From positions 17,878 to 81,877 of the forward strand of contig JBJEED010000091.1 of NCBI GenBank assembly GCA_051872765.1: DNA of 64,000 nucleotides, in the 5' to 3' direction. Shown piece by piece: positions 5,585 through 59,502 of this stretch. Under the pieces are notes generated by a model. The model searched no databases. It was given only the letters and a program-made list of their open reading frames with translations, and was not told the origin of the DNA. The translations under genes were made by a program, and so were the position numbers. Each line of letters opens with the position of its first letter. The first letter of the stretch is position 1. The stretch comes from Bacilli bacterium. GTDB taxonomy: Bacteria; Bacillota_I; Bacilli_A; RF39; UBA660.

Positions 5585-6046
5585 ATGAAATATGAAATCA
5601 ACTCAGATACTCAAGTAATCTTACCAATTAGTAAAGAGTGTACAAAGGTCATAGAACAGGGAGACGAATATATATTAAATATAGCTTGTCATGAAATATT
5701 AGAACATAGTTGTGAATATTTTGGTAGTTCATATGAAGGTAGAAAAGAAGGAACAAAGAAAATTTTAGGTATTACACATAAGGCTCCAATAATAATTGAA
5801 GAAAGTAGACAAATAATATTTTTTCCAACAACTTCACCAGATAATATTAACTGCGTATGGATTAATTTAGAAAAAATTGAAAAGTATTTTAAAACAGATA
5901 CTAGAAAATCAGCAATTATTTTTAAAGACGGAACAACATTAGAATTTAATATATCTTATGGATCTTTAACAAATCAAATAATGAGAGCAACAAGATTAAA
6001 ATATGTTTTAAATGAAAGATTAATAAAAAAAGAAGATAATAAATAA
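5585..6046 (+). CDS. comK: ComK-family competence transcription factor homolog
   Basis: 153 aa; CEYFGSSYEGRKEGT...ITHKAPIII...QIIFFPT...ISYGSL aligns block by block with B. subtilis ComK (CRFFGSSYAGRKAGT...ISHKPPIMV...QIFLFPT...ISYNSF). Confidence 0.8.
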   Translation: MKYEINSDTQVILPISKECTKVIEQGDEYILNIACHEILEHSCEYFGSSYEGRKEGTKKILGITHKAPIIIEESRQIIFFPTTSPDNINCVWINLEKIEKYFKTDTRKSAIIFKDGTTLEFNISYGSLTNQIMRATRLKYVLNERLIKKEDNK

Positions 6047-31232: not shown

Positions 31233-31286
31233 AATAATTTATAAAAATTATGTTTGTTAAATTGATAAATAACAAATATATAATTA

Positions 31287-32414
31287 GTGGGTAAAAATAT
31301 GAAAAAAAATATATTGACATTTTATATATGTAATATAATAATTATAGCCTTAATTGTATTATTTAATAATAAGAATTATAGTATTCTATTATGGATTTTA
31401 TTAACTATCTTTTTATTTTTTAAGTGTGGTTTTCCTAAAGATAAAAATTATTTAAAATATAATACAATTCAAATTGTAATAATTAGTATATTCTCATATT
31501 TTTTAATTACTTATAGTCTTGGTTTAATTACGGGATTTAGTAAAAATTTTTTTGATTTAAATATTAAATCGATTATTATGAATATGCTATATCCTTTTAC
31601 TTTGATTACTTGTCAAGAACTTATTCGATATATTTATGCTAAAAATTGTGTAGATGATATAAAGCCATATATTATGCTTACTTTAGTATATATTTTTTTA
31701 GAAATTTTTACTCAAGTTAATGGATATAATTTTTACAATTTTGAAATATTGTTTAAGTTTATATGTTTAGTAGTATTAAAAAGTATTTCTCATGAAATTC
31801 TATATAGTTATATTACTTATAAGATTAGTTTTATACCTACATTAATTATGAAACTAACATTTGGTTTATATATATACATTATACCTATATTTCCAAATTT
31901 AGGAGAATATTTAATGTCTCTTTTTGGAATATTATATCCGGCTTTGGTTTATGTAATGATATATAAAACTATTCAATCTTATGATAAAAGTAGTAAATAT
32001 GTGACTTCAATAAAGAAAAAATATTTGCTATATCCTGTAATTTTATTTTTATGCATAATTGCAGTACTTACATCAGGTATTGGAAAATATCAAATGATTG
32101 CAATTGGATCTGGTAGTATGGAACCAATATATAAGCGTGGTGATGCGGTAATCTTTACTAAGATAAAATCACTTGAAGAAGTGAAAATTGGTTCCATTAT
32201 AGCATTTACTAAAAATAATATACTAATAACACACAGAGTGGTAAATATTGAATATAAAAATGGTGATTATCAATTTATCACAAAAGGGGATAATAATAAA
32301 GATATTGACATTGGAACTGTTAGTGGCAGTAATGTTAAAGGAATTGTGATACATAAGATTCCTTATATTGGATATCCAACAATATGGATTAATGAAAAAC
32401 TAGGTAATATATAA
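31287..32414 (+). CDS. sipW: SipW-type (ER/archaeal-type) signal peptidase I fused to an approximately 250-aa N-terminal polytopic membrane domain
   Basis: C-terminal catalytic domain has IGSGSMEP (catalytic Ser), ITHRV (His) and KGDNN. The N-terminal half has about 7 predicted TM helices. Confidence 0.7.
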   Translation: MGKNMKKNILTFYICNIIIIALIVLFNNKNYSILLWILLTIFLFFKCGFPKDKNYLKYNTIQIVIISIFSYFLITYSLGLITGFSKNFFDLNIKSIIMNMLYPFTLITCQELIRYIYAKNCVDDIKPYIMLTLVYIFLEIFTQVNGYNFYNFEILFKFICLVVLKSISHEILYSYITYKISFIPTLIMKLTFGLYIYIIPIFPNLGEYLMSLFGILYPALVYVMIYKTIQSYDKSSKYVTSIKKKYLLYPVILFLCIIAVLTSGIGKYQMIAIGSGSMEPIYKRGDAVIFTKIKSLEEVKIGSIIAFTKNNILITHRVVNIEYKNGDYQFITKGDNNKDIDIGTVSGSNVKGIVIHKIPYIGYPTIWINEKLGNI

Positions 32415-32436
32415 AAAGAATAAGTGTGGTGATAAT

Positions 32437-33522
32437 ATGAAAAATGATGATAATTCTTTGTTTATGAGAAAAATTTATTATTTACTCATTGTTTTTTCAA
32501 TTATCATTTTAAGTATATGCTCTTATTTTTATATAAGAATGGGATTAGATAATAAGGTAAAAAATGTTTTAGATTACGAAAGTAGTAGTGATATAAATTA
32601 TAAAGTATATTTAAAGAAAAATAACTTTTTTAATGAAGAATATTTAACTATGAATAAAACTTATATTGCAAGTTTAATTGATCATTTAGATGTTATTTTT
32701 ACATATAATCTTAAATATAGTGAACTTGTATCTGGAAAGTATAATTATTATGTAAAAGCTACTATTTTAGCTGATAAAGATGCATCTAGTAATACAAATT
32801 ATTGGTCTAAATCTTATATTTTAACAGAACCAGAAACTATTGAATTTAGTAAAATTAATAATTATAATATCACCACTAGCGTAATAGTTGATTATCAGAA
32901 ATATAGTGATTTGCTTAAAGAATTTAGAAAAGAATATGGATTATCTATCACTGGTTTATTAAAATTAGAACTTATTGTTGAAAGTGAGACAAAAAGTGAG
33001 TCTATTGAAAATGTTGCTAATATAAATTCTTCTTCTGAATTAACTATTCCTCTTACTGAGCAAGCAATTGAATTATCTATTAATGCTGAAAATGATAGTA
33101 ATTCTGGAAGCATAGTAGAAGAGGTTGTATTAGATAATATTAAATATAAAATATTTTTAGTGCTTGGTACTATTTTAGGAATTTTAGCAATCATATTACT
33201 TGGAATATTTATTTACGAATTAATAATGTTATATCAAAGTAAAAGTAAATATTCGATAGAACTTAAAAAAATAATGTCTTCATATGATAGTATAATTGTA
33301 AATGTTAGTAGTATGCCTAATTTTACTAAATATAAAGTTATTAACGTACTTTCATTTGATGAGTTAATTGATGCTCATAGTGAAGTAAGAATGCCAATTA
33401 ATTATTATGAAGAGAAGCCTGGATGTAAAAGTGTTTTTGTACTTATTAATGGTGATATTGTCTGGATGTATACATTGTTAGATGAAAATTATAGAAAAAG
33501 AATTTTAAAAAAGAAGTCATAA
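32437..33522 (+). CDS. Hypothetical bitopic membrane protein in the matrix operon
   Basis: TM at the N-terminus and near residue 235; no family recognised. Confidence 0.45.
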   Translation: MKNDDNSLFMRKIYYLLIVFSIIILSICSYFYIRMGLDNKVKNVLDYESSSDINYKVYLKKNNFFNEEYLTMNKTYIASLIDHLDVIFTYNLKYSELVSGKYNYYVKATILADKDASSNTNYWSKSYILTEPETIEFSKINNYNITTSVIVDYQKYSDLLKEFRKEYGLSITGLLKLELIVESETKSESIENVANINSSSELTIPLTEQAIELSINAENDSNSGSIVEEVVLDNIKYKIFLVLGTILGILAIILLGIFIYELIMLYQSKSKYSIELKKIMSSYDSIIVNVSSMPNFTKYKVINVLSFDELIDAHSEVRMPINYYEEKPGCKSVFVLINGDIVWMYTLLDENYRKRILKKKS

Positions 33523-33560
33523 TTATTTATAATATAATAGAAAAGGAAAAGGAAAATCAA

Positions 33561-35900
33561 ATGTTAAAAAATCGAAATGTTATTATATATATATTTGTTT
33601 TACTAATTATTTCTTTTATGAGTGTAGGGTATGCATACTATGGACAATTGCTAGAGTTTTCTGGAAATATTAATTTAAAGCCAGATGGTAAATTTCGTAT
33701 AGATAATATAATACTTACGGATACTTCTAATGTTATAAGTAGTGTTCCACCAATTATTACAGATAATACAATTGAGTTTAATATAAGCTTTGGTGGTACT
33801 GAAAATGAGTATTATGCAATATATACAGCTGACTTCATAAATGAAAGTAGCTATAGTTATACATATAATTCTTTTAATTTTACGCCAATTGTTACCGCGA
33901 GTGGTGATGGAAGTGGACAATTATCTTTTGAAGTTAGTAATATTAATGATGGAGATGTAATTTCTCCTGGAGAGATTTTAACGATTACGTTAAAATTGAT
34001 TTTAGATGTAAGTGATTCTGAACAAACATATGATATAAATGCCAAGAGTGATGTTATATTGAATTATAATGAAAAAGGTTCTATTTTTACTAGTGTATCA
34101 CCATTATCTGTAGATTTAACTGGTACTAATGAATTAGCTTTAATTAATTTAGAGGTTATGAACACATATGGTAGAAATATTACTTTTAATATGAAATCTA
34201 GTAATAATAATTTTTCTTTAGTAAATAGTGATGGAACAGATTTAGGAAGTTTTACTATTTTAGCAAATAGTGTAGATGATTATCAAATATATTTGAAAAA
34301 GACAGATAATAGCGTGTTTTATGATTCTTCTGAGACTACAATATTAATATTACAATGTGGTACTTTAGGAAACTATAATACTAGTAAGATAACAGTTTCT
34401 GTTGATAAGTCAGAGTTAAGTGATACTAGTATTCCTGAAATTGGTGAAATTAGTTTTACTATAAATAATAATGAAGGACAGGCTGATCTTAATTGGAGTA
34501 GATTAGATAGTGGGGGCACTAGTATTATTGGTTATACAATATTACTTTATAATTCTACGAATGATACCTTAGTAAATACTTATAATACTAATAGTGACTT
34601 GACAAGTTATAGTATTACAGGTCTTGAAGAAGGAAGTTATTATGTTAAAATATATGGAACAGATCAAGCTGGAAATAATGGAAGTGGATATGTAAATGAT
34701 GCTACAACTAGTACAATTTATTGTCGTCAATCTTCTACTGTTGCTTTAAAATGGATATTTAATGTTACTAATAATTTAACTTATTTGACTTCTTCAGGTG
34801 CTAGTACTGCTTCATTAGGAAGTACATATACTGCAACATTATCGGTTTCAGGAAATGTAAGTTTGCCAACTTCTATTACAGTTACTATGAATGGTGTTAC
34901 ACTAGTAAATGGTACAGATTATACATATAGTAGTAGTACAGGACAAATATCTATTCCTAATGTAAATGGAGATATTACCATTACAGCTAGAGGAAGTGGC
35001 GTATGTTTAATTGAAGGAACAAAGATTAGTTTAGCTGATGGAAGTACTAAAAACATTGAAAATATAAGATATGATGATTTACTTCTTGTTTGGAGTTATG
35101 AAGAGGGGCGTATGGTATATGAATATCCTATTTGGATAGAAAAAGAACATAAAGCGCAATCTTATCAATTAACAAAATTCTCATCAGGAGATGAGTTAAA
35201 AACAATAGGATATCATGGCATATATAATATGGACCTTAATAGATTTGTTTCAGTTGATAATAGAGAAGAATTTGATGTTGGTACTAATGTTGCTATTATG
35301 AATGATGATAAAACAGGTTTTATATCTACTAGTGTAGTTAGTATAGAATATGTGTATGAAGAAGTAAATTATTATCATGTGGTTTCAACTAGATATTATA
35401 ATATAATTGCTAATAATATTTTAACAACTGATGGAACAGTAATATTATCTAATTTATATGGATTTGATGATAACATTATGTGGTTAAATAGAAATCAAGT
35501 AATTAATGATAAAAATAATCTTTATGATTATATAGAATTTAATGATATAATGCCATATTATATGTTTTCTGGCCTTAGAGCTAGTGAAGGTAAGTATTTA
35601 GCTAATTTAGGTTTTTTGAGTAAAGAAACATTTAAATATTATTTACTTCAAAATCAAATGAATAAAGAAATGTTGTTACCGCCAACTGTAAATAAAAATG
35701 GTATAAGACAATGGGTTGTAAAAACAAGTTTAGGATATGAAAGATTAATAGATGAGGGAAGTTATTTTTATTTAGATAATTCAAATACTTTAGGTAAAAA
35801 GATTTTATATTGGTATGATATGTCTACAGGAGTAAAATACAAACCTAATGAAAGAGTTAAAATATGGTATGGTACTTATTTTGAGGCTATATATGAATAA
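33561..35900 (+). CDS. Large secreted protein: SipW-cognate signal/TasA-like N-terminus, Fn3 domain, internal Hint (intein-like) domain
   Basis: N-terminus ...FMSVGYAYYGQ...NLKPDG; Fn3-like LNWSRLDSGGTSIIGYTILLYN...YYVKIYGTD; Hint block A CLIEGTKISLADGSTKNIENI...DLLLV at residue 482 and block F-like YYNIIANNILTTDG (about nt 35004-35435). Confidence 0.6.
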   Translation: MLKNRNVIIYIFVLLIISFMSVGYAYYGQLLEFSGNINLKPDGKFRIDNIILTDTSNVISSVPPIITDNTIEFNISFGGTENEYYAIYTADFINESSYSYTYNSFNFTPIVTASGDGSGQLSFEVSNINDGDVISPGEILTITLKLILDVSDSEQTYDINAKSDVILNYNEKGSIFTSVSPLSVDLTGTNELALINLEVMNTYGRNITFNMKSSNNNFSLVNSDGTDLGSFTILANSVDDYQIYLKKTDNSVFYDSSETTILILQCGTLGNYNTSKITVSVDKSELSDTSIPEIGEISFTINNNEGQADLNWSRLDSGGTSIIGYTILLYNSTNDTLVNTYNTNSDLTSYSITGLEEGSYYVKIYGTDQAGNNGSGYVNDATTSTIYCRQSSTVALKWIFNVTNNLTYLTSSGASTASLGSTYTATLSVSGNVSLPTSITVTMNGVTLVNGTDYTYSSSTGQISIPNVNGDITITARGSGVCLIEGTKISLADGSTKNIENIRYDDLLLVWSYEEGRMVYEYPIWIEKEHKAQSYQLTKFSSGDELKTIGYHGIYNMDLNRFVSVDNREEFDVGTNVAIMNDDKTGFISTSVVSIEYVYEEVNYYHVVSTRYYNIIANNILTTDGTVILSNLYGFDDNIMWLNRNQVINDKNNLYDYIEFNDIMPYYMFSGLRASEGKYLANLGFLSKETFKYYLLQNQMNKEMLLPPTVNKNGIRQWVVKTSLGYERLIDEGSYFYLDNSNTLGKKILYWYDMSTGVKYKPNERVKIWYGTYFEAIYE

Positions 35901-46696: not shown

Positions 46697-48448
46697 TTAA
46701 TTTCTATTATATTTTAATGCTCTTTTATATTCATCTCTCATAAGTAGAAGTTCCATACTTCTTAAATTAAAATATTCTACTAGTCTTTCAAATTGTTCAA
46801 AATCAAAATCAAAATCTTTATCTTTGAATATAAATTTATGTGCTAAATATTGTTCATATAAATCAGGATATTTTCTAAGTGGGTCGCAAGATTGCGTATA
46901 TGTGTAAATTCCCATACCACTATGGTATAAAGGAGAAGTTGAGTATCTACTATCTAAATATAATTCACTTACTATATCTTTAATATATTGATAGTTTCCA
47001 ATACCACATTCATCTAATAATTCACTTATATATTCACCATCTTGATATCTATAAATATATGGAATATTATTTTCATTACAATATTTACCGAATAAAGTAT
47101 TATATAAAACCATAAATTCTCTTATAATCATATCGCCTTTAAAACTAATATTTTTGTAGTTTACACTTTTTGATTTTTCTTTTTTATCCCAGTATCTACT
47201 TTTTTTAATATCATTATATTCAAGTGCTTTAGATAGCATAAATAATTCTTCTAGTTGTCTTTTTAGTTCACTTTTATCACTACTATTCATAATTTCTTCG
47301 TTTTGTAAATATGAAAGGTTTCTACTAACTATAATAGTGTTCTTTTTAATATAATAATCTAATATCTCACCACTATCATTCATTACTACATATAATGATA
47401 TTGTATCTCTAGATTTACCTTTATCAAGTGATAGTGCATTTTCATATTCATGTGGTAGTATTCTCGTATTACCATATCTATATATACATTTAAAGTTATT
47501 TTTAGCATTAAGATCAACATCACTAAAAGGATCAATGTGTTTTCCTGCATCAGCAATATGTATGCCCACTATATATTTATTTCCATCTTTTTTAATGCTC
47601 AAGCCATCGTCTCTTAGTTTAGTATTATCACCATCTATAGTAAATATCTTCTCGTTTATACCTTTAGCTTTAGGTTCTAGTATAATTCCACTTTCAGGTA
47701 TCTTTTTTATTAAATTGTATTTATCTAGTATTTCACTTGGGGTTAAAGAAAATTTATTTCCATTTAATAAAGATACTATTTCTTTTGCAAATGGATTATC
47801 TTCTAAACCAATTAAATAGCTTTTATATTTATCATGTTCTATATCAGGATTATCTAATATTCTAAGTAATGTTAAGTAGTAGTATATATTCTCATTATTA
47901 TTATTTATAGATGAGATAGTTTTTTTAAAAACAAAATCAAATAAATCTGTTTTTTCTATTGATATAACATTTTTATATTCATTTATAAATTTTTTAATAA
48001 TATTAGGATTTTCATTTTTATTTATAAGAATTTTTATAAATTTAACAAAACCTTCTGTATACATTTGTTTATCTAAAATTATACTTTCTAATCTTTCCAC
48101 ATTATCTATAAGAGATTGATTATTATATTTATTTGCATAAGACATTATGGATAATTTAGCTTTTTTAATTCGTTCCTTATTAACTATTATTTCTTTTTCG
48201 GTAAATGTTCTATTATTGCATAGTACATAAATCATATTAACACATTTAGTAATGCATTCATCTATATATTCATCTTCACCATTTGATAATTTATATATGT
48301 AATCATTTAAAATATCAAATGATATTTTAATAATTTTATTGATTGTAATATTTTTATGTTCATTAAGCTTTCCAAAAAGTTTATCTACACTTTTTGAATC
48401 AATTTTATCATGTAATATAAATCTTTTAATAACTGCTTTAGTGTCCAT
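46697..48448 (-). CDS. Divergent RNB-domain (RNase II/R family) protein without cold-shock or S1 domains
   Basis: IDGDNTKLRDDGLS resembles RNB motif I (IDGEDARDFDDA); YTYTQSCDPLRKYPDLYEQYLAHKF resembles RNase R YTHFTSPIRRYPDL...H. The N-terminal 270 aa match no known family. Confidence 0.6.
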   Translation of the reverse strand: MDTKAVIKRFILHDKIDSKSVDKLFGKLNEHKNITINKIIKISFDILNDYIYKLSNGEDEYIDECITKCVNMIYVLCNNRTFTEKEIIVNKERIKKAKLSIMSYANKYNNQSLIDNVERLESIILDKQMYTEGFVKFIKILINKNENPNIIKKFINEYKNVISIEKTDLFDFVFKKTISSINNNNENIYYYLTLLRILDNPDIEHDKYKSYLIGLEDNPFAKEIVSLLNGNKFSLTPSEILDKYNLIKKIPESGIILEPKAKGINEKIFTIDGDNTKLRDDGLSIKKDGNKYIVGIHIADAGKHIDPFSDVDLNAKNNFKCIYRYGNTRILPHEYENALSLDKGKSRDTISLYVVMNDSGEILDYYIKKNTIIVSRNLSYLQNEEIMNSSDKSELKRQLEELFMLSKALEYNDIKKSRYWDKKEKSKSVNYKNISFKGDMIIREFMVLYNTLFGKYCNENNIPYIYRYQDGEYISELLDECGIGNYQYIKDIVSELYLDSRYSTSPLYHSGMGIYTYTQSCDPLRKYPDLYEQYLAHKFIFKDKDFDFDFEQFERLVEYFNLRSMELLLMRDEYKRALKYNRN

Positions 48449-48530
48449 AATAATCTCCAGACTTATGTTATCATATTACAATTTAATTTTACAAGTAAAT
48501 ATGATATAATTTTTTTATAAAGGAGCAGTT

Positions 48531-49019
48531 ATGTATAAATATAAAAAGAATATTATAAGAGTTTTAACTTGTATTTATGTAATTTTATCAATAATAGAAT
48601 TTATTAAATATTTTTTTGTGAATAGTAATTTATTTGGTTTAATATATTTAATTATAAATATATTTATTATATTTTTATTAGTACCGGTAGCTTATAATTA
48701 CAATAAATACTATTCTATACCTAGAATTAGTAAGTTAATAATGGTAATAATATTGGGTATATTTAGTAGTTATATATTGAATAATATTGTAATTAATAAT
48801 ATGAGCTATACTGATGCTTCTATTATATATAATAATAAAATTTTTATAACAAAAAATATATTAAAAGTGATAGTTTACTTTGCACTAACTATATTTACAA
48901 TATTTGAATTTAAACTAGATAAATTAATAAAGAATATAACGGATAATAACAAAACGATTAATAAAAGTACTAAACGAAAAAAAATCAAACATAGACAAAA
49001 TAAAAAGAAAATGGTATAA
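48531..49019 (+). CDS. Hypothetical small polytopic membrane protein
   Basis: Four hydrophobic segments, basic C-terminal tail. Confidence 0.4.
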   Translation: MYKYKKNIIRVLTCIYVILSIIEFIKYFFVNSNLFGLIYLIINIFIIFLLVPVAYNYNKYYSIPRISKLIMVIILGIFSSYILNNIVINNMSYTDASIIYNNKIFITKNILKVIVYFALTIFTIFEFKLDKLIKNITDNNKTINKSTKRKKIKHRQNKKKMV

Positions 49020-49035
49020 TATGAAAAAATTTAAG

Positions 49036-49052
49036 TTTTTTTTTGGGGGGGG
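49036..49052 (+). repeat. Homopolymeric tract T9 followed by G8 at the start of an ORFan gene
   Basis: T-run 49036-49044 and G-run 49045-49052. A G8 run is highly atypical for this genome. The tract sits 4 nt upstream of ATG 49057 and inside the frame opened by ATG 49021. Confidence 0.8.
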
Positions 49053-49056
49053 TAAA

Positions 49057-49713
49057 ATGAAAATTGTTGTAATTGAAAGCAAAAAAGATTTAGACAGTAT
49101 AAGAAATATTGATGATGATAGAATATTATTATTTTTTGTAAAAGATATTAAATTTGATGGGGAATTTGAACCTATTAATAAAGAAAATTGTGAGATAATT
49201 ATATTTGGAAATAATTGTACTTTAGAAAATATTGTTATAAATAAACCTAATACTAATGATATTGGTTTGTTTTCAAAAGTTAAAAGTATGAATGTTAGAG
49301 ATCTAAAAATATTAAATTCACATATTAAATCTGGTGAGGTTTGTGGTTCATTAGTAGGAAGAGTAGATAATTCAATTAAGGCAAAAAATGTTACTGTTTA
49401 TGCTAATATTGATTCTGATAGTATCATTGGAGGAATTGTAGGTTCTACAAGAACAGCGAATATTTCAAATTGTAGTATTAGTGGTAATTTTTCAGCAAGA
49501 GGTATAATAGGGGGGTTAATTGGTATATGTAATTCTTTTGAAGGAAATAAAAATAACATAGATTCATTTTCTTTTAATACTGATCCAAACTATACCACAT
49601 GTACTATACATTTGGATGTAGGTTATTTAAGTGAAAGAGAAGAAAAAAATCTAACAATGAAATTAATACCTTTAATGAAAGATACAACTTTATCGGAGTA
49701 TTACATAAAGTAA
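49057..49713 (+). CDS. Hypothetical protein with Gly-rich GGIVG/GGLIG repeats; the alternative start ATG 49021 reads through the T9G8 tract
   Basis: ORF of 218-230 aa; an internal G6 run lies at 49510-49515. Confidence 0.5.
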   Translation: MKIVVIESKKDLDSIRNIDDDRILLFFVKDIKFDGEFEPINKENCEIIIFGNNCTLENIVINKPNTNDIGLFSKVKSMNVRDLKILNSHIKSGEVCGSLVGRVDNSIKAKNVTVYANIDSDSIIGGIVGSTRTANISNCSISGNFSARGIIGGLIGICNSFEGNKNNIDSFSFNTDPNYTTCTIHLDVGYLSEREEKNLTMKLIPLMKDTTLSEYYIK

Positions 49714-49885
49714 TACTCTCTTTTAATTGGCTATAAAATATTAGTATTTTTTATAAAAGTATTGATTCTTTATAAAAAAAATGTATAATAATATCTCGAA
49801 ATATCAATTAAAATAATAGGTTAGTTGACAAAAGGCATATTTTATGGTATAATATGCACAATTAACAAAAGGGGGAAAGGTTGTT

Positions 49886-51145
49886 ATGAATGAAAGTTTA
49901 TTATTAAATATGAGAAAGTTCAAAAATGAACTAAAAAATGAAAGATTAATTTTAGTTGAGCAATATAATCAAGCTACTACTGTTGCTGAGAAGAATGAGA
50001 TTGTTGATAGAGTAGAAGTACTAGATGCTATTTTTAGAGAAGTGGTTGCTGCTATTGTTGCTAAAGATGAAAGTAAATTAGAAGAATTAGCTGAAAAATA
50101 TGGTGTTAAATACGATAAAGACGAAAAAGAAACTAATTCTAAATTACCAGAAGAAAAGGTAAATGATAAAAAATCATTTTTTAAACAATTACCAATATGT
50201 TTACTAGCTGGTATTGCAGGTGGATTACTTGGACGTTGCGCTTATGACTTATTAAATGCTAATACTGCTATTGAAGAAGATATGGATGAAGATTTAACTT
50301 CTGATAAAAAAGTTAGTAAAAATGAAAAACCATTTGAAGTATATGGTGAGTTTAATGATTCTTCAAATGAAAAACAAATTCAAAATAGAGCAGTTTGGTT
50401 CTATGATAATTATGTTTCTAAAAATTCAGGTGTTAATCAAATCAGTACAAATGATCTTATGAATGTAATTAGAATGACAAATGGAGAATTTAAATTAGAT
50501 GATAGTGGAAATATTACTTATAATGCCATGGATATTATAGATGCTGCAAATGATATTCACACTATTGCAAATTATGCTTCATTTTCTCAAAATAAAAATA
50601 ATTTAACATTTGTGCCATATGCTCCATTATTTGAAGATGGGTCATTAGCACAACAAGGCGCTACTATATTGGATGATGCATATAAAAAAGTAGTAGATGC
50701 AATTAAAGCTGATGATGTAGAAGCATTTAAAGAAGCAGCAAAGCAATGGGGAATTGCAGTTGTAAATATTTTTGAACAAAATGATTTTACTGGTAAATAT
50801 CCAAGTGTATTTCAAATGGAGCCAGCTCAAGCATATCAATTATATCAAGTGATGTATGCTACATATGGAACAACAATTTTTGAATATGGACAATCAAGAA
50901 ATGTAAATATTTGTATTCCATATTGTACTGATTATAATAGTTCAGAATTAGTAGAAACTCCATTATCTGAAATTATTTATCAGTTAAATGAAGTTCCAAC
51001 AGATTGGGTTGCTAAGAGAAGTGGACATGAAAGTGAATATGCAGAAAATAACTTGTCATTACCAGAAGAGTTGTATTTAGCATCTAAGAATTATTATGAT
51101 AGTAAATATGAGTTAGAGATTGGTAAAAGTAGAGTTTTAAAATAA
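49886..51145 (+). CDS. Hypothetical protein with a central TM segment; composition richer in Ala/Val/Gly than its neighbours
   Basis: Preceded by a perfect sigma-A promoter, TTGACA-17-TATAAT (about 49826-49854), and a strong RBS AAAGGGGGAAAGG. Confidence 0.5.
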   Translation: MNESLLLNMRKFKNELKNERLILVEQYNQATTVAEKNEIVDRVEVLDAIFREVVAAIVAKDESKLEELAEKYGVKYDKDEKETNSKLPEEKVNDKKSFFKQLPICLLAGIAGGLLGRCAYDLLNANTAIEEDMDEDLTSDKKVSKNEKPFEVYGEFNDSSNEKQIQNRAVWFYDNYVSKNSGVNQISTNDLMNVIRMTNGEFKLDDSGNITYNAMDIIDAANDIHTIANYASFSQNKNNLTFVPYAPLFEDGSLAQQGATILDDAYKKVVDAIKADDVEAFKEAAKQWGIAVVNIFEQNDFTGKYPSVFQMEPAQAYQLYQVMYATYGTTIFEYGQSRNVNICIPYCTDYNSSELVETPLSEIIYQLNEVPTDWVAKRSGHESEYAENNLSLPEELYLASKNYYDSKYELEIGKSRVLK

Positions 51146-51167
51146 TATATTAAAGGGGGATATTAAA

Positions 51168-52562
51168 ATGTATAGTAATAAAAGAAATGGTTTTAGTATT
51201 TTAGATATTCTTGTTAAAATTATATTCATTGCGTTGTTTATATTTATTCTAATATGGTTATTTAAAAAGAATGTGCCAAATATGACTGCATTTTATAGTA
51301 ATGTGTTTAGAGAAAATATAAAGTATATGCAAGAAGCAGGTGAAAGTTATTTTACTGATGATAAAATGCCTCAAAATGTTGGTGATACAGTTAAAATTAC
51401 TTTAGCTGAAATGTTTGAAAAGAAATTAATATTACCATTTGTAGATGAAGATGGAAATTCTTGTAATCAATATGAATCTTATGTAAGTATTACTAAAGAA
51501 GTTGATGAAAGTTATTCTTTAAAAACAAACTTAGTATGTAATAAAGAACAGGATTATACAATTAAAGTACTTGGATGCCATAACTATTGTAAAGATAGTG
51601 AATGCTCTAAAACTTGTAGTATTGAAAAAATAACATCTTATCAATATAAAAAATTAGCAACTTCAACTAAGACTGTATATAGTTGTCCAAGTGGCTATAA
51701 ATTAGATGGTAAGTATTGTATTAAAACAATACTTGCTGATACAACATCAGCGAAAGTAACAACTGTTTCTACAACTAAAGTAGAAGTGCCTGCTATTGTA
51801 AAAAAAGTTGAGGGAGAAAAGACACTTTTAAATACTATTAAGACTAGTGTTCGTGAGTATGTAGATAGAATTGAAACAACAACACCAGGTCAAACTACTA
51901 CAACAACTATTCCATATACTTGTACAAAAGAACAAACTACTAGACAATGTTCAACAACTTATACACAAAATGCATATTCTTGTAATTGTACTACTCATGT
52001 AGGTCCAACAGGAAAACCAAGTACTACTTGTAGCACATGTTATGAAACTGTACCAGTTGAAACTTGTAAGGATGTAACTTCTACATATCAAGATACATGC
52101 TATAAGAGTGTGACATCTACTACTCCAGATGTAACTACTTATTCTTGTCCAGTTGATACAATTGAAGAAGGATCTGGAGAAAACTTAAAATGTTATAAGG
52201 TTGTTAAAAAATATAGTTGTCCAGCAGAAGCAAATTTAAAAGAGGGAAGTGGATCTAGTCTTAAATGTTATAAAGTCAAGGAAGGATCAGTTACATATAC
52301 TTGTCCTGATAGTACTTATACATTAAGTGCAGATAAGTGTTATAAGTATATTAATGAAGAAAGTACACAATATATTTGTAAAGATGGTTATAAATTAGAA
52401 GGAACTTTATGTAAGAAATATACTACTGAAAAAATTAAAGCAAATTCCAAGAAAGTAACTACTAAATATTATAAATATCAATGGAGTACTAAGACATCAA
52501 TTCCAGGATGGACTAAGACTGGTAAAACTAAAACTATAAATGGAAAAGAGATTTGTAAATAA
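51168..52562 (+). CDS. Cys-rich secreted/surface protein with a type IV pilin-like N-terminus
   Basis: N-terminus MYSNKRNGFSILDILVKIIFIALFIF resembles a class III (prepilin) signal, with Asp at +5. More than 30 Cys occur in recurring C-x(10-14)-C-Y-K units (CPSGYKLDGKYC, CPVDTIEEGSGENLKCYKV, CPAEANLKEGSGSSLKCYKV, and others). Confidence 0.5.
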   Translation: MYSNKRNGFSILDILVKIIFIALFIFILIWLFKKNVPNMTAFYSNVFRENIKYMQEAGESYFTDDKMPQNVGDTVKITLAEMFEKKLILPFVDEDGNSCNQYESYVSITKEVDESYSLKTNLVCNKEQDYTIKVLGCHNYCKDSECSKTCSIEKITSYQYKKLATSTKTVYSCPSGYKLDGKYCIKTILADTTSAKVTTVSTTKVEVPAIVKKVEGEKTLLNTIKTSVREYVDRIETTTPGQTTTTTIPYTCTKEQTTRQCSTTYTQNAYSCNCTTHVGPTGKPSTTCSTCYETVPVETCKDVTSTYQDTCYKSVTSTTPDVTTYSCPVDTIEEGSGENLKCYKVVKKYSCPAEANLKEGSGSSLKCYKVKEGSVTYTCPDSTYTLSADKCYKYINEESTQYICKDGYKLEGTLCKKYTTEKIKANSKKVTTKYYKYQWSTKTSIPGWTKTGKTKTINGKEICK

Positions 52563-52624
52563 ATCTCTCTTTTTTTTTCATTTTGTTGTATAATATTAAG
52601 TAGATTTTTAAATTGAGGTGTATT

Positions 52625-53071
52625 ATGAAAAAAAATAAAAATATAATTATTATTATTAGTATACTATTTGGATTTGTATTATTTTTTATATTGTCATTTA
52701 TGATATCTGGTAATACTAGTGAACCACTAAAAGAAAATGTAAATATTGATGAATGGTATAGTGAAACTCAAAAGGATGAATATGTCATTACTGTAATCGG
52801 ACAAACTACTTGTCCAAACTGTAAAGCTTATAAACCTATTATTTCAAGTTTATCTACTAAATATAAACTTAACTTATATTTCTTTGAAAGTGATATGTTA
52901 GAAGAAGAAGAATATAATAAATTAATTAGTTCATATGAGGAATTTGACCATGAATATGTTCCATTTACGGCTATTACTAAAAATGGTAAAGTATTAACTA
53001 CGACTGTTGGGAAAAAAGAGAAAAATGAACTAATTGAATTTTTAAAAGAATATGGAGTTATTAAAAACTAG
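52625..53071 (+). CDS. Membrane-anchored thioredoxin-fold thiol-disulfide oxidoreductase (CPNC active site)
   Basis: N-terminal TM, then VITVIGQTTCPNCKAY, a Trx-like CxxC context. Start taken at ATG 52625. Confidence 0.6.
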   Translation: MKKNKNIIIIISILFGFVLFFILSFMISGNTSEPLKENVNIDEWYSETQKDEYVITVIGQTTCPNCKAYKPIISSLSTKYKLNLYFFESDMLEEEEYNKLISSYEEFDHEYVPFTAITKNGKVLTTTVGKKEKNELIEFLKEYGVIKN

Positions 53072-53157
53072 TAATCTAGTTTTTTTTAATGTATAATTTA
53101 AGTTGTAAGTAATTATTTTTATTACTTAGGAAAGCGAGGTATTAAAAATCGTATATT

Positions 53158-54261
53158 ATGAAAAAATTATTATCGTATTCAATAATTATTTGTTTTATAT
53201 TAATATTTGTTAAATACAGATATAGTGATTATGATATTAAATATGAAATTGGTGATTATAAAATAAGAACTAGTTATAGTGATAAAAGATTATATTATGA
53301 AATTACTGATGGTAATAAAACATATAATTTTGATGTATATATGAGAAGAAGTCTAAGTAAAAAAAATATTACAAATATTAAAACTATTGAGGGAGATAAT
53401 TTTAATTGTATATATCCTGTAGTAAAAGATATAGAAACTTATCCTTTATGTTATATAGGGGATGAGTTTACTGATTATAATTTAATTGATTCAGAATTAC
53501 TTGAGTCGTATAAAAAAGAAACAATTAACATTGAAAAATCCGAAAAAGATTTTATTTATTATAATAATTTAGATAATAGTGAGTATATTGCTTTATGGAA
53601 TTATAAAGGTTATATAGTAATGAATGGAAAAACTTATAATAATATTGATTTATTCAAAAAAGATAAATATGATAATACTCTTTCTTATTTAATAAAAGAT
53701 ACTTTGTATATAGCTGATTATGATCAAGAGCATGAATATAATAAATTAATAACTTTGAATTTAAAAACACTTAAAAAATCAGAAATTATTCTTAATAAAA
53801 AGATAGATTTTGATTCATATTTTGTGGGTCATATTAATAAAAAATTATACATATATGATAATAAAAATAGTATATTATATGAAATAGATATTAGAAATGG
53901 AGAAACTGAAATAAAAGGAAATAATGAAATTGGTTTTGTGAAATATAATAATGGTAAGTTTATTGTATGTAGTAAATCTGAATATAAAATAAACAAAATA
54001 AAATATGATATAAATGAATCAATATACATATATACGAACAATAATGGTTTATTTAAAACAATAAAAGAAAATAGTAAGTTAATACAGAAAATTACAAATG
54101 ATGATGTAAAACTTATTAAAGAAAATAATAATAAAATATATTATTTAGATGTAGATAGTTTTTATATGTATACTCCTAATAATGGAAATGAATTAATATT
54201 TTATAATTATGAATTATCTTTTAATAATGAAAATACAATATTCGTATATTTAAATAACTAA
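53158..54261 (+). CDS. Hypothetical N-terminally anchored, beta-rich N/Y/K-rich protein
   Basis: Signal/TM at the N-terminus; no family recognised. Confidence 0.4.
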   Translation: MKKLLSYSIIICFILIFVKYRYSDYDIKYEIGDYKIRTSYSDKRLYYEITDGNKTYNFDVYMRRSLSKKNITNIKTIEGDNFNCIYPVVKDIETYPLCYIGDEFTDYNLIDSELLESYKKETINIEKSEKDFIYYNNLDNSEYIALWNYKGYIVMNGKTYNNIDLFKKDKYDNTLSYLIKDTLYIADYDQEHEYNKLITLNLKTLKKSEIILNKKIDFDSYFVGHINKKLYIYDNKNSILYEIDIRNGETEIKGNNEIGFVKYNNGKFIVCSKSEYKINKIKYDINESIYIYTNNNGLFKTIKENSKLIQKITNDDVKLIKENNNKIYYLDVDSFYMYTPNNGNELIFYNYELSFNNENTIFVYLNN

Positions 54262-54289
54262 ATTTAAAAAAATACATATAATACTTTAG

Positions 54290-54547
54290 GTGATTAAAGT
54301 GTTAGATTATGAAATTAAAAATAGTATAGAAAGTCCTTTTTATAGTATATATGAAATTAAAAAAGGAGATACATTATATAAGATATCTAAAGAATATAAT
54401 GTAAATACTAAGTTACTTGCTGAATTAAATGGTCTTGATTTAGATGATTATATTTATCCAGGTCAAGGTCTATTGGTTCCTAAAAAAGATGTAAGTTATT
54501 ATATTACTAAAGATGGGGATACGATTTTTGTGGGGAATAATGAGTAA
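54290..54547 (+). pseudogene. 5' portion of a split tandem-LysM gene: intact LysM1, with LysM2 interrupted after ...YYITKDGDT by the recombinase element
   Basis: LysM1 is YEIKKGDTLYKISKEYNVNTKLLAELNGLDLDDYIYPGQGLLVP. The ORF then reaches the start of a second LysM (VSYYITKDGDT) and diverges into element sequence (IFVGNNE*). Confidence 0.6.
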
Positions 54548-54599
54548 AATTATTGATTTATTTAGAAAAAAGTTTATAATATAAAGCAAGATAGGGGAT

Positions 54600-54980
54600 T
54601 TGCTAATGGAAGAGGATGAAAAAATTAGTCTTGAAATGTCTAATAACTTGAACTATGCTTTATCAAATTTAAAACAAGCTATAGAAGAGATAAATGTTTT
54701 AGAAGATAAGACATACTTTGAATTGACTAAACAACAAATAATTGATTATTTAAATTATGTTTATGCAAACATAAAGGACTGGAAAAAGAGTTATGAAACA
54801 AAAAATTATAAAATAATTACAGATAAATATAAAGAAATAGAATCTATTATTTCACAATTAGAATTTTGTTTAGTTGAATTTGATAATAAGTTTCATATAG
54901 AAGGCATATCATATTCTATATTCCAAATTGGCAAAATTATATCTAATTTAGAGAAAGAGAGTGATAAAAATGGCAGATGA
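54600..54980 (+). CDS. Hypothetical helical protein (cargo of the element)
   Basis: 126-aa ORF, no family recognised. Confidence 0.4.
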   Translation: MLMEEDEKISLEMSNNLNYALSNLKQAIEEINVLEDKTYFELTKQQIIDYLNYVYANIKDWKKSYETKNYKIITDKYKEIESIISQLEFCLVEFDNKFHIEGISYSIFQIGKIISNLEKESDKNGR

Positions 54981-55521
54981 TAAACCAATAATAAAAGCAA
55001 CTACTCCAAATAGTAGTAAATATGATGCTAAAATAGATGTGTACACATCAGATCCTAAAGGTCCTCATGAATCAATTCATATAGCAGTCGATAGCGATTC
55101 AAAGTCAGCACATATTATAGACACAACAAATGGCGGTACAGAACATACTGATGTTAAATGTTATTTAACTTCGGCTTGTATGAAATATTTTCAAGAAAAA
55201 TTTGATGATAATTGTTATGAATTAACAATACTAAGATGGTTTAGAGATAATTTTGTTTCAAAGGAAGATATACAACATTACTATGAAGTAGCACCAATTA
55301 TTGTTGAAACAATTAATAAAGAAGAAAAATCTGATATTATTTATGATTATATTTACGATAATATAGTAGATTATTGTGTTGAACAAATTGAACAAGGAAA
55401 CTATGAGGCAGCATATAACAGATATAAAAATAGTGTTTTAGTATTAGAAGAACAATTTGCAAAACCAGCATTAACAGATAGATTTATAAAAACTTTAAAA
55501 TTAAAAACTAATAATCAGTAA
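54961..55521 (+). CDS. Hypothetical protein (cargo of the element)
   Basis: 186-aa ORF, followed by the hairpin AATCATCCT...AGGATGATT. Confidence 0.4.
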   Translation: MIKMADDKPIIKATTPNSSKYDAKIDVYTSDPKGPHESIHIAVDSDSKSAHIIDTTNGGTEHTDVKCYLTSACMKYFQEKFDDNCYELTILRWFRDNFVSKEDIQHYYEVAPIIVETINKEEKSDIIYDYIYDNIVDYCVEQIEQGNYEAAYNRYKNSVLVLEEQFAKPALTDRFIKTLKLKTNNQ

Positions 55522-55946
55522 AAATTAATCATCCTATAAAATTTAGTGAAAACTAGAAATTAGGATGATTTTTTGTGCTATAAATTATAGTTAATATTAG
55601 ACTTATCCTATATAGCATCCTACTTTGTAGGATGAATTTCGTAAGTACGAAATAAGCATGGTGCATATACAAGCCCTTATTTCATAAGGAAAAGTGAGTA
55701 TATATGCACCATTTTCTTATCCTGCTATTCGATATTTTAATAGATTCTTAACTATTTTAGAATGATAGACAAAACTTTCCATTGTAAATGACTTGATTCT
55801 TATATTTTAAGAGAGGTATCATACATGCAAAAGGAGATGATGTTTATGAATATGAAGGAGGACTATGATATTAAGTAATATTATTAGGTATGTCTATAAC
55901 ACACCTAATAATATTACTAAAACAAAATTTAAAGCCATAGAATTTA

Positions 55947-56144
55947 TTGGGGGTATTAAACTCTATGGTTAAATACAAAGTTAATTTGAAATTTAAAGAA
56001 AATGGAAAATCTTTAAATGAAACAATAACTAATGTATTAAAAATTGAACTAGAAAAAAGAACAAATACGACTTGTAATATTTTAAAAAAGGAGTTACCAT
56101 TCAAGCATACTCATTATTCCCAAATGGAAGGGAGTAGGAATTGA
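55947..56144 (+). CDS. Small ORF immediately upstream of, and overlapping, the recombinase start; possible ribbon-helix-helix-like or recombination directionality factor
   Basis: KYKVNLKF...SLNETITNVLKIELEKR has a beta-strand then helix pattern; speculative. Confidence 0.2.
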   Translation: MGVLNSMVKYKVNLKFKENGKSLNETITNVLKIELEKRTNTTCNILKKELPFKHTHYSQMEGSRN

Positions 56145-57709
56145 TGATAGGGAATAGTAGTTTTAAAGCAGGAATATATATAAGATTATCAAGAGATGAT
56201 GGAAATATTGAATCTGATAGTATTGTTAGTCAAAGAAGTTTACTTAATCAGTATGTTAAAGAAAATAACTACAATATAATAGATGAATATGTTGATGATG
56301 GATTTACTGGAACTAATTTTGAAAGACCATCATTTAAAAGAATGATTAGTGACATTGAAATTGGCAAAATTAATATGATTATTACTAAAGATATGTCTAG
56401 ATTAGGTAGAGATTATATAGGTACAGGAGAACTCATTGAAAAGTATTTTCCAAATAAAAATGTTAGGTATATTGCTATTAACGATGGTATTGATACATTT
56501 ATAGATAATACAAATAATGATATAGCACCTTTTAAAGCTATAATGAATGATATGTATGCTAAAGATATTTCTAAAAAAGTTAAAACAAGTTTGCATTCTA
56601 GAATGAAAGAAGGATTGTATGTATCTGGTAGATGCCCATTTGGTTATATGAAAGATCCAAATAATAAAAATCATTTAGTCATAAATGAAGAACAAGCAGA
56701 AGTAGTTAAATTAATATTTGATTTGGCGCTTAAAGGTAATACTTACCACTATATTGCTCAAGAATTAACTAAAAGAAAAATTAAAACACCAGCATCCTAT
56801 TATAACTATGTTTGGAATACTAAGTGTATAAATACAAATTGTATTTCACAAGAATATGGTGTATGGGTTGATACAACAATTAAATCAATTTTAACTAATA
56901 GAATTTATGTAGGTGATGTAGTGCAAGGTAAAACTAAAAAGATTAATTATAAACTTAAAAAGACGGTTAAAAATAATCCAAATGATTACATTGTAGTTGA
57001 AAATATACATGAACCAATAATTGATAGAGATACATTTAATTATGTTCAAACTTTATTACCTAAAAATGTTAAAAGACCAGAAAAGAAACGATTTTATTTA
57101 TTAGATGGACTTTTATATTGCGGAGATTGTAAACATCGTATAACTATTAGATATCAAACTAAAACTGACAGAAGTTATACAACTTGTGATTATTATAGAA
57201 CATATTCAAAATATCATGTTTGTACAACTCATACAAATAATTATGAAGTATTAGAAAGTGTAATTTTAGAAAACATAAAAGAAATATGTAAAAGGTATTT
57301 AGATAAAAATAAAATAAAAGATTCTATTGGCAATATAAAATTTGAAGATAATACTTTAAAAATAAAAAAACAAATAGAAAGTTTAGAAATAGCTAATAAT
57401 AAATTAATAGAAAGTCTAGATAAGACTTATATGGATAGGTTAAAAGGAATTATTGATGAGGAACAATACATAAGAATAAGTGAAAATCTAAAACAAGAAA
57501 TAGCTAATAATAAATTAAGTATTGATAGTCTTAAAAATGAACAAATAAATGAAAATAAAGTAGATAATAAACAAATAGAAAAATATATAAATGAATTTTT
57601 ATCATTAGAAAATTCAACTAGAGAATTAATAATTAATTTAGTAGAAAAGATTTATATCTATCAAGATAAAACGATAGATATTATATTTACATTTAAAAAT
57701 GTTACATAA
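56141..57709 (+). CDS. Large serine recombinase (resolvase/invertase catalytic domain, recombinase domain, zinc-ribbon domain, coiled-coil)
   Basis: N-terminus GIYIRLSRDD...SIVSQRSLL (catalytic Ser), ...DDGFTGTNFERP...ITKDMSRLGRD; Cys cluster CGDC...C...C in the C-terminal half; 522 aa. Confidence 0.9.
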   Translation: MMIGNSSFKAGIYIRLSRDDGNIESDSIVSQRSLLNQYVKENNYNIIDEYVDDGFTGTNFERPSFKRMISDIEIGKINMIITKDMSRLGRDYIGTGELIEKYFPNKNVRYIAINDGIDTFIDNTNNDIAPFKAIMNDMYAKDISKKVKTSLHSRMKEGLYVSGRCPFGYMKDPNNKNHLVINEEQAEVVKLIFDLALKGNTYHYIAQELTKRKIKTPASYYNYVWNTKCINTNCISQEYGVWVDTTIKSILTNRIYVGDVVQGKTKKINYKLKKTVKNNPNDYIVVENIHEPIIDRDTFNYVQTLLPKNVKRPEKKRFYLLDGLLYCGDCKHRITIRYQTKTDRSYTTCDYYRTYSKYHVCTTHTNNYEVLESVILENIKEICKRYLDKNKIKDSIGNIKFEDNTLKIKKQIESLEIANNKLIESLDKTYMDRLKGIIDEEQYIRISENLKQEIANNKLSIDSLKNEQINENKVDNKQIEKYINEFLSLENSTRELIINLVEKIYIYQDKTIDIIFTFKNVT

Positions 57710-57894: not shown

Positions 57895-59502
57895 ATGATA
57901 ATAAAAAAGCCATATGCTTTTTTAATTAAGAATTTTAGGGTCATTCATGGACTTATTTTTGCTATGCTTCTTTATTTGACTTTTAAATTATTTTCTATAT
58001 ATTCTTTTTTTAGTGAATATGTATCTAACCATTATTATATAAACACTGGAACATTAGAAAGTGAATATATTAATTTTATAATGTTTATAGTAGCAAGTTT
58101 AGTTATTATAGTATCTATTATAATATTTTATCTATTATCTGTGAAAAGAAAAGAAAATAAATCTTACATGATAATAGTAATATACAATGTATTACTTATA
58201 ATTTATTTTTTTGTGATGTTTAGAGTATTTCAAGATTTAAATATAAATTCCTTGGATACTGAAACTGTCAGATTTTATAGAGATATTTCAATGATTGCAC
58301 TAATACCAGAGGCTATATTTATGTTAATTATGCTTGGTAGAACACTTGGATTTAATATAAAACAATTTGATTTTAAAAAAGATTTAGAAGAAATAAATAT
58401 AGATAGTAGTGACAATGAGGAAATAGAGCTATCTCTTGGTAATGATACATATAAATTTAAAAGATATATAAGAAAGTTATTTAGACTAGGTAAATATTTT
58501 GTTTTAGAAAATAGATTATTTGTTATATGTGTTAGCTCAGCAATAGTTTTAATACTATGCGTTACAATATTCATGAATATAAACGTTTATGGTACAAATT
58601 ATGAAGAAAATACTCAAATAGTGGCTAATACAGTATGGTATAAAGTTAATTCTAGTTATTTAACGACAACTGATATTAATAATAAAGTAATTAATAAAGG
58701 AAAAACTTATTTGATTGTAAAAGTAGAGGCTGAAAATAAATTATCAAAAACATATACTCTCTCAAGAGAAACATTTAGATTAGAATTTGAAAATGATATA
58801 TTATTTCCAATATTTACATTAAGTAACAGTTTTATTGATTTTGGTGAACTTTTTGTACCAAGAGAATTAAAGGCTAATGAAAATAGGGAATTTGTTGTAG
58901 TATATGAATTAGATACAAAAAAAATATCATCATCTTCATTTACCTTTAAAATTAAAAATTATAATGAAAAGGCATTAGGAGATATACAAGCTCCTTATAA
59001 GGATATTATATTAAAACCAAAAAATATAAATGATATACAAATAGAAGAAGAATATAATATACCATCTTCCTTAGATTTTAAGAAAACTATTTTAAATAAT
59101 TCTAAATTGGAAATAAGTGAATATAATATTAATGATACTTATATTGAAACATATGAACAATGTGAAAATGAAATATGTAAAAATATTAAGTATATAGTTG
59201 CTCCAAATAATATTGGTAAAGGAGAATTAACTATATTAAAATTAAAATCAGATCTGCAGTTAGATGATAATCTATATTTAAAAAAGTATATAAGTATTCC
59301 ATCTGAATTTTTAGAAAAATATGCATATTTAGAATATAATTATTTAGGAACGAAATATATTTCTTATTTAGAAGCAATACCAGTTAAATATAATAAAGAT
59401 AAATATTCTTATTTACAAGTGACAAAAAATATCAAATATTCAAATGATATTAAATTAATTATATTAATTAGAGGAATAAAATACACAATTAACTTGAAAT
59501 AA
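57895..59502 (+). CDS. Hypothetical membrane protein (four N-terminal TM helices plus large extracytoplasmic domain)
   Basis: 535-aa ORF; no family recognised. Confidence 0.45.
   Translation: MIIKKPYAFLIKNFRVIHGLIFAMLLYLTFKLFSIYSFFSEYVSNHYYINTGTLESEYINFIMFIVASLVIIVSIIIFYLLSVKRKENKSYMIIVIYNVLLIIYFFVMFRVFQDLNINSLDTETVRFYRDISMIALIPEAIFMLIMLGRTLGFNIKQFDFKKDLEEINIDSSDNEEIELSLGNDTYKFKRYIRKLFRLGKYFVLENRLFVICVSSAIVLILCVTIFMNINVYGTNYEENTQIVANTVWYKVNSSYLTTTDINNKVINKGKTYLIVKVEAENKLSKTYTLSRETFRLEFENDILFPIFTLSNSFIDFGELFVPRELKANENREFVVVYELDTKKISSSSFTFKIKNYNEKALGDIQAPYKDIILKPKNINDIQIEEEYNIPSSLDFKKTILNNSKLEISEYNINDTYIETYEQCENEICKNIKYIVAPNNIGKGELTILKLKSDLQLDDNLYLKKYISIPSEFLEKYAYLEYNYLGTKYISYLEAIPVKYNKDKYSYLQVTKNIKYSNDIKLIILIRGIKYTINLK

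Follow-up and report, generated by a model that had tools for sequence, protein, structure and literature searches.

Extracytoplasmic oxidoreductases of Gram-positive bacteria can be encoded beside, or act on, cysteine-containing exported substrates, as MdbA does with sortase pilins (PMC5478893, PMC9974433, PMC12453122); an exported Cys-rich substrate with a neighboring thiol-disulfide oxidoreductase is thus an arrangement of a type already known. Exported proteins of Firmicutes are generally poor in cysteine, less strictly so in anaerobes (PMC2823432), and the charting of oxidative folding in anaerobic Firmicutes is just beginning, with DsbA-like enzymes there able to work without a dedicated re-oxidizing partner (PMC12453122). 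Here we analyze a locus in a 64,000-nucleotide stretch (the window) of an uncultured Bacilli bacterium of the RF39 lineage (GenBank assembly GCA_051872765.1, contig JBJEED010000091.1, positions 17,878 to 81,877), using as the Gram-positive comparison set MdbA of Actinomyces and Corynebacterium, SdbA of Streptococcus gordonii, BdbD of Bacillus and the clostridial DsbA homologues. Its subjects are CYS464, a Cys-rich and Thr-rich protein of 464 amino acids (aa; 51168..52562, + strand); TRX, a membrane-anchored thioredoxin-fold protein of 148 aa encoded just downstream (52625..53071, +); and g419, a bitopic upstream partner (49886..51145, +). The reading that we favor, with moderate confidence, is that CYS464 is a signal-anchored, disulfide-rich stalk protein from a large unnamed family of uncultured low-GC gut Bacilli, that it is made together with g419, and that TRX is its likely oxidase.

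The cysteine content of CYS464 sets it apart in the window. The protein, whose N-terminus is MYSNKRNGFSILDILVKIIF, carries 25 cysteines, or 5.4% of its residues, where the other 49 open reading frames (ORFs) of the window average 1.06% (binomial tail 7e-11); 20 cysteines are invariant across 46 homologues, and threonine accounts for 15.1% of the residues. An earlier reading made from the DNA letters alone (the sequence-only reading) had pointed to a 464-aa Cys-rich ORF beside a thioredoxin ORF with a CPNC active site, and both ORFs stand, the thioredoxin start probably moving to 52625; the build that it described, of recurring cysteine pairs and Thr-rich linkers, also stands, but its count of more than 30 cysteines does not. 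Six hairpins match the regular expression C-x10-15-C-[YIK]-K, starting at residues 173, 300, 327, 351, 379 and 404, and the stalk as a whole (51615..52556, +) is made of Cys-bracketed, cEGF-like hairpins (YSCPxGYxLxGxxCYK) and Thr-rich linkers, with the C-terminal motif YKYQWS..GWTKTGKTK..GKEIC coming last. AlphaFold2 models the stalk as long beta-hairpins, with a predicted local distance difference test (pLDDT) score of mostly 70-89. The number of repeats differs among relatives, and cysteines are gained or lost pairwise as it shifts. When the full-length model was run through Foldseek, the only hits were spurious ones on the long hairpins of pore-forming toxins (TM-scores ≤0.1), and a profile search of PDB sequences with the CYS464 alignment returned nothing.

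The family to which this protein belongs is large. A search with full-length CYS464 finds 463 homologues, none of them named or domain-annotated, and residues 1-160 as the query yield 1053 clusters at 50% identity (E<=1e-3; 650 at E<=1e-10), whose proteins span ~350-900 aa. For the analyses below, N-termini were aligned for 138 sequences (137 representatives of 50%-identity clusters and the query), and a set of 120 close relatives, clustered at 90% identity, was combined with a distant set to give 257 relatives in total. The relatives come solely from uncultured gut metagenome-assembled genomes labeled Bacilli, Mollicutes, Tenericutes or 'Clostridium sp. CAG:1000 / CAG:524'.

Three elements are conserved family-wide: a transmembrane helix, a juxtamembrane domain and a C-terminal motif of the form Y-x-Y-K-W-S...G-W..T-G-x-T-R/K. 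In CYS464 the helix (aa 11-32; 51198..51263, +) is placed by AlphaFold2 and by conservation, the models ending it at residue 32 or 34, and it closes with WLF(P), with W30, L31, F32 and P33 each conserved in 110-129 of the 138 aligned N-termini. After a break comes the juxtamembrane alpha/beta domain (aa 40-135; 51285..51572, +), delimited by the models, the family search and conservation and comprising a helix at 40-61, a short strand and helix, and a small three-stranded sheet; its invariant residues are N50, M54, P68, L79, D93, C99, S104, L122 and C124, and residues 1-155 are modeled with a pLDDT of 83.7 and a predicted template modeling score (pTM) of 0.66. The middle part varies by lineage, being filled by arrays of Y-x-C-P-x-G-Y-x-L-x-G-x-x-C hairpins, by Big_2 or other Ig-like modules, or by Cys-poor repeats. 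Pfam cEGF is matched by 10 of 42 family members (best E 2e-11), while CYS464 itself scores 13.9 bits against this model (PF12662), under the gathering threshold of 26.6.

Judged by these conserved elements, the family layout is that of a surface stalk protein anchored at its N-terminus. The N-terminus reads as an uncleaved signal anchor, because the hydrophobic segment is long, its W-L-F-P end is conserved and it bears no signal-peptidase I motif; the sequence-only reading had called the protein secreted, and the prediction of a signal anchor revises this. CYS464 would accordingly sit in the cell envelope in a type-II orientation, N-terminus inside, with a ~100-aa juxtamembrane domain, a lineage-variable stalk and a short C-terminal motif following the helix. 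In the clade of the window the stalk would comprise about ten beta-hairpins, each stapled by a disulfide between consecutive cysteines and joined to the next by Thr-rich linkers, the topology and the actual formation of these disulfides both being predicted. We infer a structural or adhesive role in the envelope from this architecture, from the variable stalk, from the LysM gene in the same gene block (below) and from the cell-wall-related genes (LysM, PG_binding_1, NlpC/P60, PASTA, murG/murB) that lie near several distant members.

An association with an upstream gene is evident across most of the family. At 39 of 40 related loci, distant ones included, a gene for a 420-550-aa protein ends 15-25 bp 5' of the Cys-rich gene (88 bp at locus L044), and its product follows a common plan: a cytoplasmic coiled-coil-like N-terminus, one transmembrane helix and an ectodomain of ~300 aa. 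In g419 itself the helix lies at aa 102-120 and the ectodomain, of ~290 aa, contains a C-I-P-Y-C motif. BLASTP failed to connect g419 with the upstream gene of L045, for which a profile hidden Markov model (HMM) was required; the HMM of upstream genes finds those of further distant loci (L053, 5.5e-14; L045, 2.4e-11; L052, 4.7e-9; L048, 3.6e-4), the controls scoring negative. One distant subfamily has no g419-like partner, the two members examined (the P0184 locus and L051) having a small Smr gene directly upstream. With this subfamily excepted, gene order marks g419, rather than the thioredoxin, as the constant partner of CYS464, and the two proteins presumably interact. Many g419 orthologues (loci L003-L037) have a lipobox-like L-[RSA]-[GS]-C right after the internal transmembrane helix (such as LRGC, LSSC or LASC), a pattern that the LGRC of the window does not fit.

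Promoter and terminator motifs flank these two genes. Directly readable at 49825..49853 (+) is a sigma-A-type promoter, TTGACA and TGgTATAAT (an extended -10) separated by 17 nt, which is the sole 12/12 sigma-70-type match with a TG extension within 48400-56200 and is followed by a strong ribosome-binding site, AAAGGGGG; a TTGAC[AT]-17-TATAAT box is present 5' of the orthologous gene in ~40 genomes, distant ones included. At the other end, an AT-rich terminator-like hairpin followed by nine T (52547..52578, +) has a stem, AGAGATTTG/TAAATCTCT, that overlaps the CYS464 stop codon, with a fold energy of -7.6 kcal/mol. A generic terminator scanner overlooked it, its stem having few G-C pairs; a hairpin with a T-run stands 3' of the stop codon in 27 of 31 genomes examined. 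From these motifs, g419 and CYS464 look like a strongly expressed bicistronic unit, and the span from consensus sigma-A promoter to terminator points to vegetative rather than sporulation-specific expression, so that the two proteins would be made together and abundantly in vegetative cells. A second promoter-like box, TTGATT-16-TATAAT, lies at 49762-49789, ~60 bp upstream of the main promoter, and several relatives show a similar duplicated promoter-plus-leader arrangement.

Downstream of the hairpin, TRX was called as a 152-aa ORF (52613-53071, +), the most likely start being the ATG at 52625, preceded by the ribosome-binding site GAGGTG, for a length of 148 aa. With 34.7 bits (E 1.9e-8), the protein exceeds the 23.5-bit cut-off of Pfam Thioredoxin (PF00085); it carries a single hydrophobic segment, at the N-terminus, and the active site C63-P-N-C66 (nt 52811-52822). 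All 15 orthologues compared keep C63, C66 and the cis-Pro P113, which lies in [VI]-P-[FY]-T. Its domain is minimal, the ~105 aa after the transmembrane helix aligning end to end with classical thioredoxins of 105-110 aa. In the clade syntenic with the window the gene order is P-type ATPase, RNB-family RNase, g162, g419, CYS464, TRX, g367, LysM85 and a large serine recombinase, and a transmembrane-anchored thioredoxin lies directly 3' of CYS464 in ~30 of 36 syntenic genomes, all of this one clade (40-93% identity); the adjacency of the Cys-rich gene and a membrane-anchored thioredoxin-fold gene with a CPNC site, which the sequence-only reading had noticed, is thereby confirmed. The active sites of the orthologues are mostly CPHC, the others being CSHC, CGHC, CPYC, CQYC, CSYC and CPNC. 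Such dipeptides are oxidase or isomerase motifs, as in DsbA and PDI, and reducing thioredoxins have CGPC.

On these grounds TRX is probably the oxidase of the CYS464 cysteines. Most likely it would oxidize the hairpin cysteines on the outer face of the membrane as they emerge, and it may additionally oxidize the Cys pairs of g367 and g419; predicted disulfides link cysteines that follow one another in the chain, an order that suits a simple DsbA-like oxidase acting during translocation. Oxidative folding is the best-supported, though putative, link between CYS464 and TRX. Most TRX orthologues (L003-L030) have an N-terminal extension, either Lys-rich or a CxxC...CxxC zinc-ribbon, and an additional hydrophobic segment, WWILGxxLPPVGxxLY, ahead of the anchor helix; the TRX of the window has neither. 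As a candidate DsbB- or VKOR-like partner, g162 was rejected, having one cysteine and no CxxC.

Several observations weigh against this assignment, or against the reading as a whole. The closest solved relatives of TRX are ordinary reducing thioredoxins, TRX has no DsbA helical insert, and the direction of a redox reaction is not readable from a CxxC motif alone; the Pfam and NCBIfam scans gave no DsbA-family (PF01323) match, the best NCBIfam matches being far below cut-off (PedC/BrcD TIGR01295, 30.6 against 120 bits; TrbB TIGR02738, 24.6 against 132 bits). Many TRX orthologues have an extra hydrophobic segment that makes their topology ambiguous. The loci L002, L005 and L007 lack TRX while their Cys-rich proteins retain 25-29 cysteines, and no TRX, g367 or LysM85 occurs within 7-8 kb of the distant Cys-rich members; together with the conserved terminator-like hairpin that separates TRX from CYS464, this leaves unsupported the 'dedicated' thioredoxin that the sequence-only reading had proposed. 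The full-length AlphaFold2 model of CYS464 has a pTM of 0.30, at least one of its cysteines must lie outside any intramolecular pair (the extracytoplasmic count is always odd), and no gene here has a homologue of established function.

The adjacency of TRX and CYS464 could be incidental, with TRX serving as a general extracytoplasmic oxidoreductase, or as a reductase or isomerase for g367 or other envelope proteins, and with CYS464 either oxidized by a different enzyme or by small-molecule oxidants, or binding metal in place of forming disulfides. We regard this as unlikely, though as the most probable of the alternatives. Besides the missing thioredoxins and the plain thioredoxins among the nearest solved structures, it draws support from the layout between the two genes, where the hairpin is joined by separate ribosome-binding and promoter-like elements, and from g367, a transmembrane-anchored extracytoplasmic protein (53158..54261, +) recognized by synteny, which always accompanies TRX, is syntenic in the same clade (35-71% identity) and has an invariant pair of cysteines, C84/C98. 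Against incidental adjacency stand the placement of TRX exactly between CYS464 and g367 in ~30 genomes at 40-93% identity, its oxidase- or isomerase-type dipeptides (CPHC, CGHC) and the fact that CYS464 presents by far the biggest cysteine load of the neighborhood.

The odd cysteine leads to a more ambitious proposal. The extracytoplasmic cysteine count is odd in 43 of 43 Cys-rich members (23-51 Cys), including those without the C-terminal cysteine, and the three members with an even total have one extra cysteine within the transmembrane helix; since the hairpins add cysteines in pairs, one conserved cysteine appears to be left without an intramolecular partner. On the strength of this parity, g419 and CYS464 might form an unrecognized, widespread two-component envelope apparatus in which the odd cysteine gives intermolecular disulfides made by TRX, yielding a polymerized surface fiber or lattice distinct from both type IV and sortase pili; if so, the odd cysteine would link subunits to one another, or the stalk to a partner. 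We consider this distinctly doubtful. A fixed g419-CYS464 heterodimer disulfide was rejected as a candidate, since the g419 family shows no pattern of cysteine parity.

It is very improbable that CYS464 belongs to the spore, either cross-linked in a coat- or exosporium-like layer or acting in the forespore intermembrane space with a StoA-like TRX. The region does encode SpoVT and the YabG protease, which suggests a spore-forming lineage, and SpoVG was recognized by eye in translation; spore coat and exosporium proteins are often Cys-rich; and a LysM protein and a large serine recombinase belong to the conserved block. The spore-surface structure proposed by the sequence-only reading nevertheless runs against the 12/12 promoter, a perfect sigma-A consensus rather than a sigma-E, -K, -F or -G type, kept in ~40 genomes, and against the transmembrane anchor with its variable, surface-type stalk, which in relatives carries Big_2/Ig-like modules. 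The neighbors of distant members, moreover, are housekeeping and cell-wall genes (pheST, cdaA, murG/murB, PASTA).

Finally, the sequence-only reading had taken the N-terminus for that of a prepilin. The window sequence does read KRNG|FSILD, resembling a class III signal in its short basic leader followed by a hydrophobic stretch, but the resemblance is not conserved in the family. Among the 120 close relatives, 64 have Gly at position -1, 52 have Arg, one has Asn and one Val, and two are off-pattern; of the 138 aligned N-termini, 59 (43%) have Gly there. In the same alignment +1 is Phe in 51%; +4, Leu in CYS464, is Lys or Arg in 104 (75%); +5, Asp in CYS464, is D in 84 (61%), N in 18, G in 8, S in 7 and E in only 5 (4%); and +9 is K, Q or R in 126 (91%). 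The charged and polar residues at +4 and +9 interrupt the hydrophobic alpha1-N segment, and the predicted helix breaks at the conserved WLFP..P motif. The pattern G-x4-E was found in 0 of 257 relatives, and Pfam N_methyl (PF07963) matched 0 of 42 relatives at E<=0.05 and failed to match CYS464 even at E<=10. The order of elements in the N-domain, a helix and then an antiparallel sheet, is compatible with a pilin-like fold, and Foldseek of this domain against the PDB gave nothing significant, the top match being the pilin ComZ (E 0.19, probability 0.44). The comK gene of the window suggests that a Com apparatus may be present, and proteins weakly matching N_methyl lie near one distant relative, but the window ORFs scanned include no pilus genes, prepilin peptidase, or assembly ATPase or platform. 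A type IV pilin or pseudopilin, processed behind G8 by a prepilin peptidase and either built into a pilus or Com pseudopilus or placed at its tip, is thus scarcely tenable, and by its sequence-level prepilin features CYS464 is not a pilin. The case also carries a caution for annotation: a prepilin motif can be mimicked by chance in a single sequence, and conservation of -1 Gly and +5 Glu across the family should be applied as the test.

The wider chromosomal setting is as follows. The window, of ~22% GC, opens at the origin region (dnaA, dnaN, comK, recF, gyrB, gyrA, dnaX, recR, mfd, spoVT, yabG, tilS, ftsH, tsaBD), after which come the P-type ATPase and the RNB-family RNase; comK (5585-6046), flanked by dnaN and recF, matches Pfam ComK with E 2e-47. 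When 49000-56000 was compared by Megablast with plasmid and phage sequences, nothing matched; tblastn of CYS464 likewise found nothing in phages, and in plasmids a single irrelevant match of 23% coverage; no CYS464 paralogue was found across the window. Pfam, NCBIfam and PHROGs were blank for CYS464, g419, g367 and g162, even at E<=10, and g367 was likewise without a match among PDB sequences. LysM85 (54290..54547, +), a small protein with a lone peptidoglycan-binding LysM domain (Pfam LysM, E 4e-16), closes the conserved block and is syntenic in most of the clade at 70-84% identity. At the distant P0184 locus (NCBI GCA_016648615.1), genes for two large, weakly N_methyl-matching proteins precede the family member by a few kb, and murG, murB and a POTRA (FtsQ-like) gene follow it.

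The large serine recombinase of the block (535 aa, 57895-59502) keeps its syntenic place after the LysM gene in ~30 genomes, with 41-93% identity, falling to 31% in the more distant L036. Its neighbors are housekeeping genes, no inverted repeats were found at its flanks, and it could have been domesticated instead of belonging to a mobile element. Between LysM85 and this recombinase, the window has three genes at 54600-57709 that are extra relative to its closest relatives, L027 and L001: g126, g186 (a weak CFI-box-CTERM match) and a second large serine recombinase of 522 aa, with an inverted repeat of 23 nt (55871-55921, 91% complementary) upstream of the latter; g186 and the 522-aa recombinase are also present in L006, where g126 has no match. 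A repeat search around the operon and the recombinases returned only AT-rich chance repeats and internal hairpin repeats, and so gave no evidence of an invertible element. Between g162 and g419, at 49021-49713, the window and its closest relative L027 alone carry g230 (a weak GLUG-motif match), with a terminator-like hairpin at 49695-49719 on its 3' side. Elsewhere, a TasA/SipW-like cluster (30669-35900) encodes a small secreted protein (weak DUF11), a multi-transmembrane protein whose C-terminus holds a signal-peptidase S26 domain, a DUF5305 protein and a 779-aa protein whose C-terminal part is Hint-like by eye (CLIEGTKISLADGS) and had no match in Pfam.

Together, these results define a locus that offers a natural putative substrate of 25-51 cysteines, apparently strongly expressed, beside a candidate oxidase in uncultured small-genome gut Bacilli. 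The family, large and without a Pfam or NCBIfam model, and its partner gene provide an entry point to the envelope of organisms that are represented by metagenomes only.

Set beside the systems already described, CYS464 shares with type IV pilins and pseudopilins a short basic leader and G-F-S-I-L-D, in one sequence, and, in the predicted model, an N-terminal helix followed by a small antiparallel sheet, whereas its family has no conserved -1 Gly or +5 Glu, carries charges inside 'alpha1-N' and gives no HMM or significant structural match. With the eukaryotic epidermal growth factor (EGF) and cEGF hairpins (PF12662) the family shares the two-Cys beta-hairpin Y-x-C-P-x-G-Y-x-L-x-G-x-x-C, yet CYS464, itself under the cut-off, has only this two-Cys C-terminal hairpin and not the six-Cys EGF module, and the resemblance likely arose by convergence. 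PedC/BrcD, disulfide isomerases of bacteriocin maturation, and TrbB, a thiol-disulfide isomerase of F-plasmid pilus assembly, are likewise accessory thioredoxins encoded beside a Cys-containing exported product; given the scores of TRX against their models and a neighborhood free of bacteriocin and conjugation genes, the analogy is one of arrangement only. Compared with MdbA, SdbA, BdbD and DsbA, TRX is distinguished by its minimal domain without the helical insert and by having no family-specific sequence match, and its presumed substrate is an unrelated protein of 25 cysteines, unlike the sortase pilin of MdbA with its one or two disulfides. In common with these enzymes, TRX is a membrane-tethered, thioredoxin-fold protein, probably facing outward, with a CxxC site, a cis-Pro loop and, in most orthologues, the CPHC motif of DsbA; and it would act in an anaerobic Firmicute, with probably no DsbB or VKOR partner close by.

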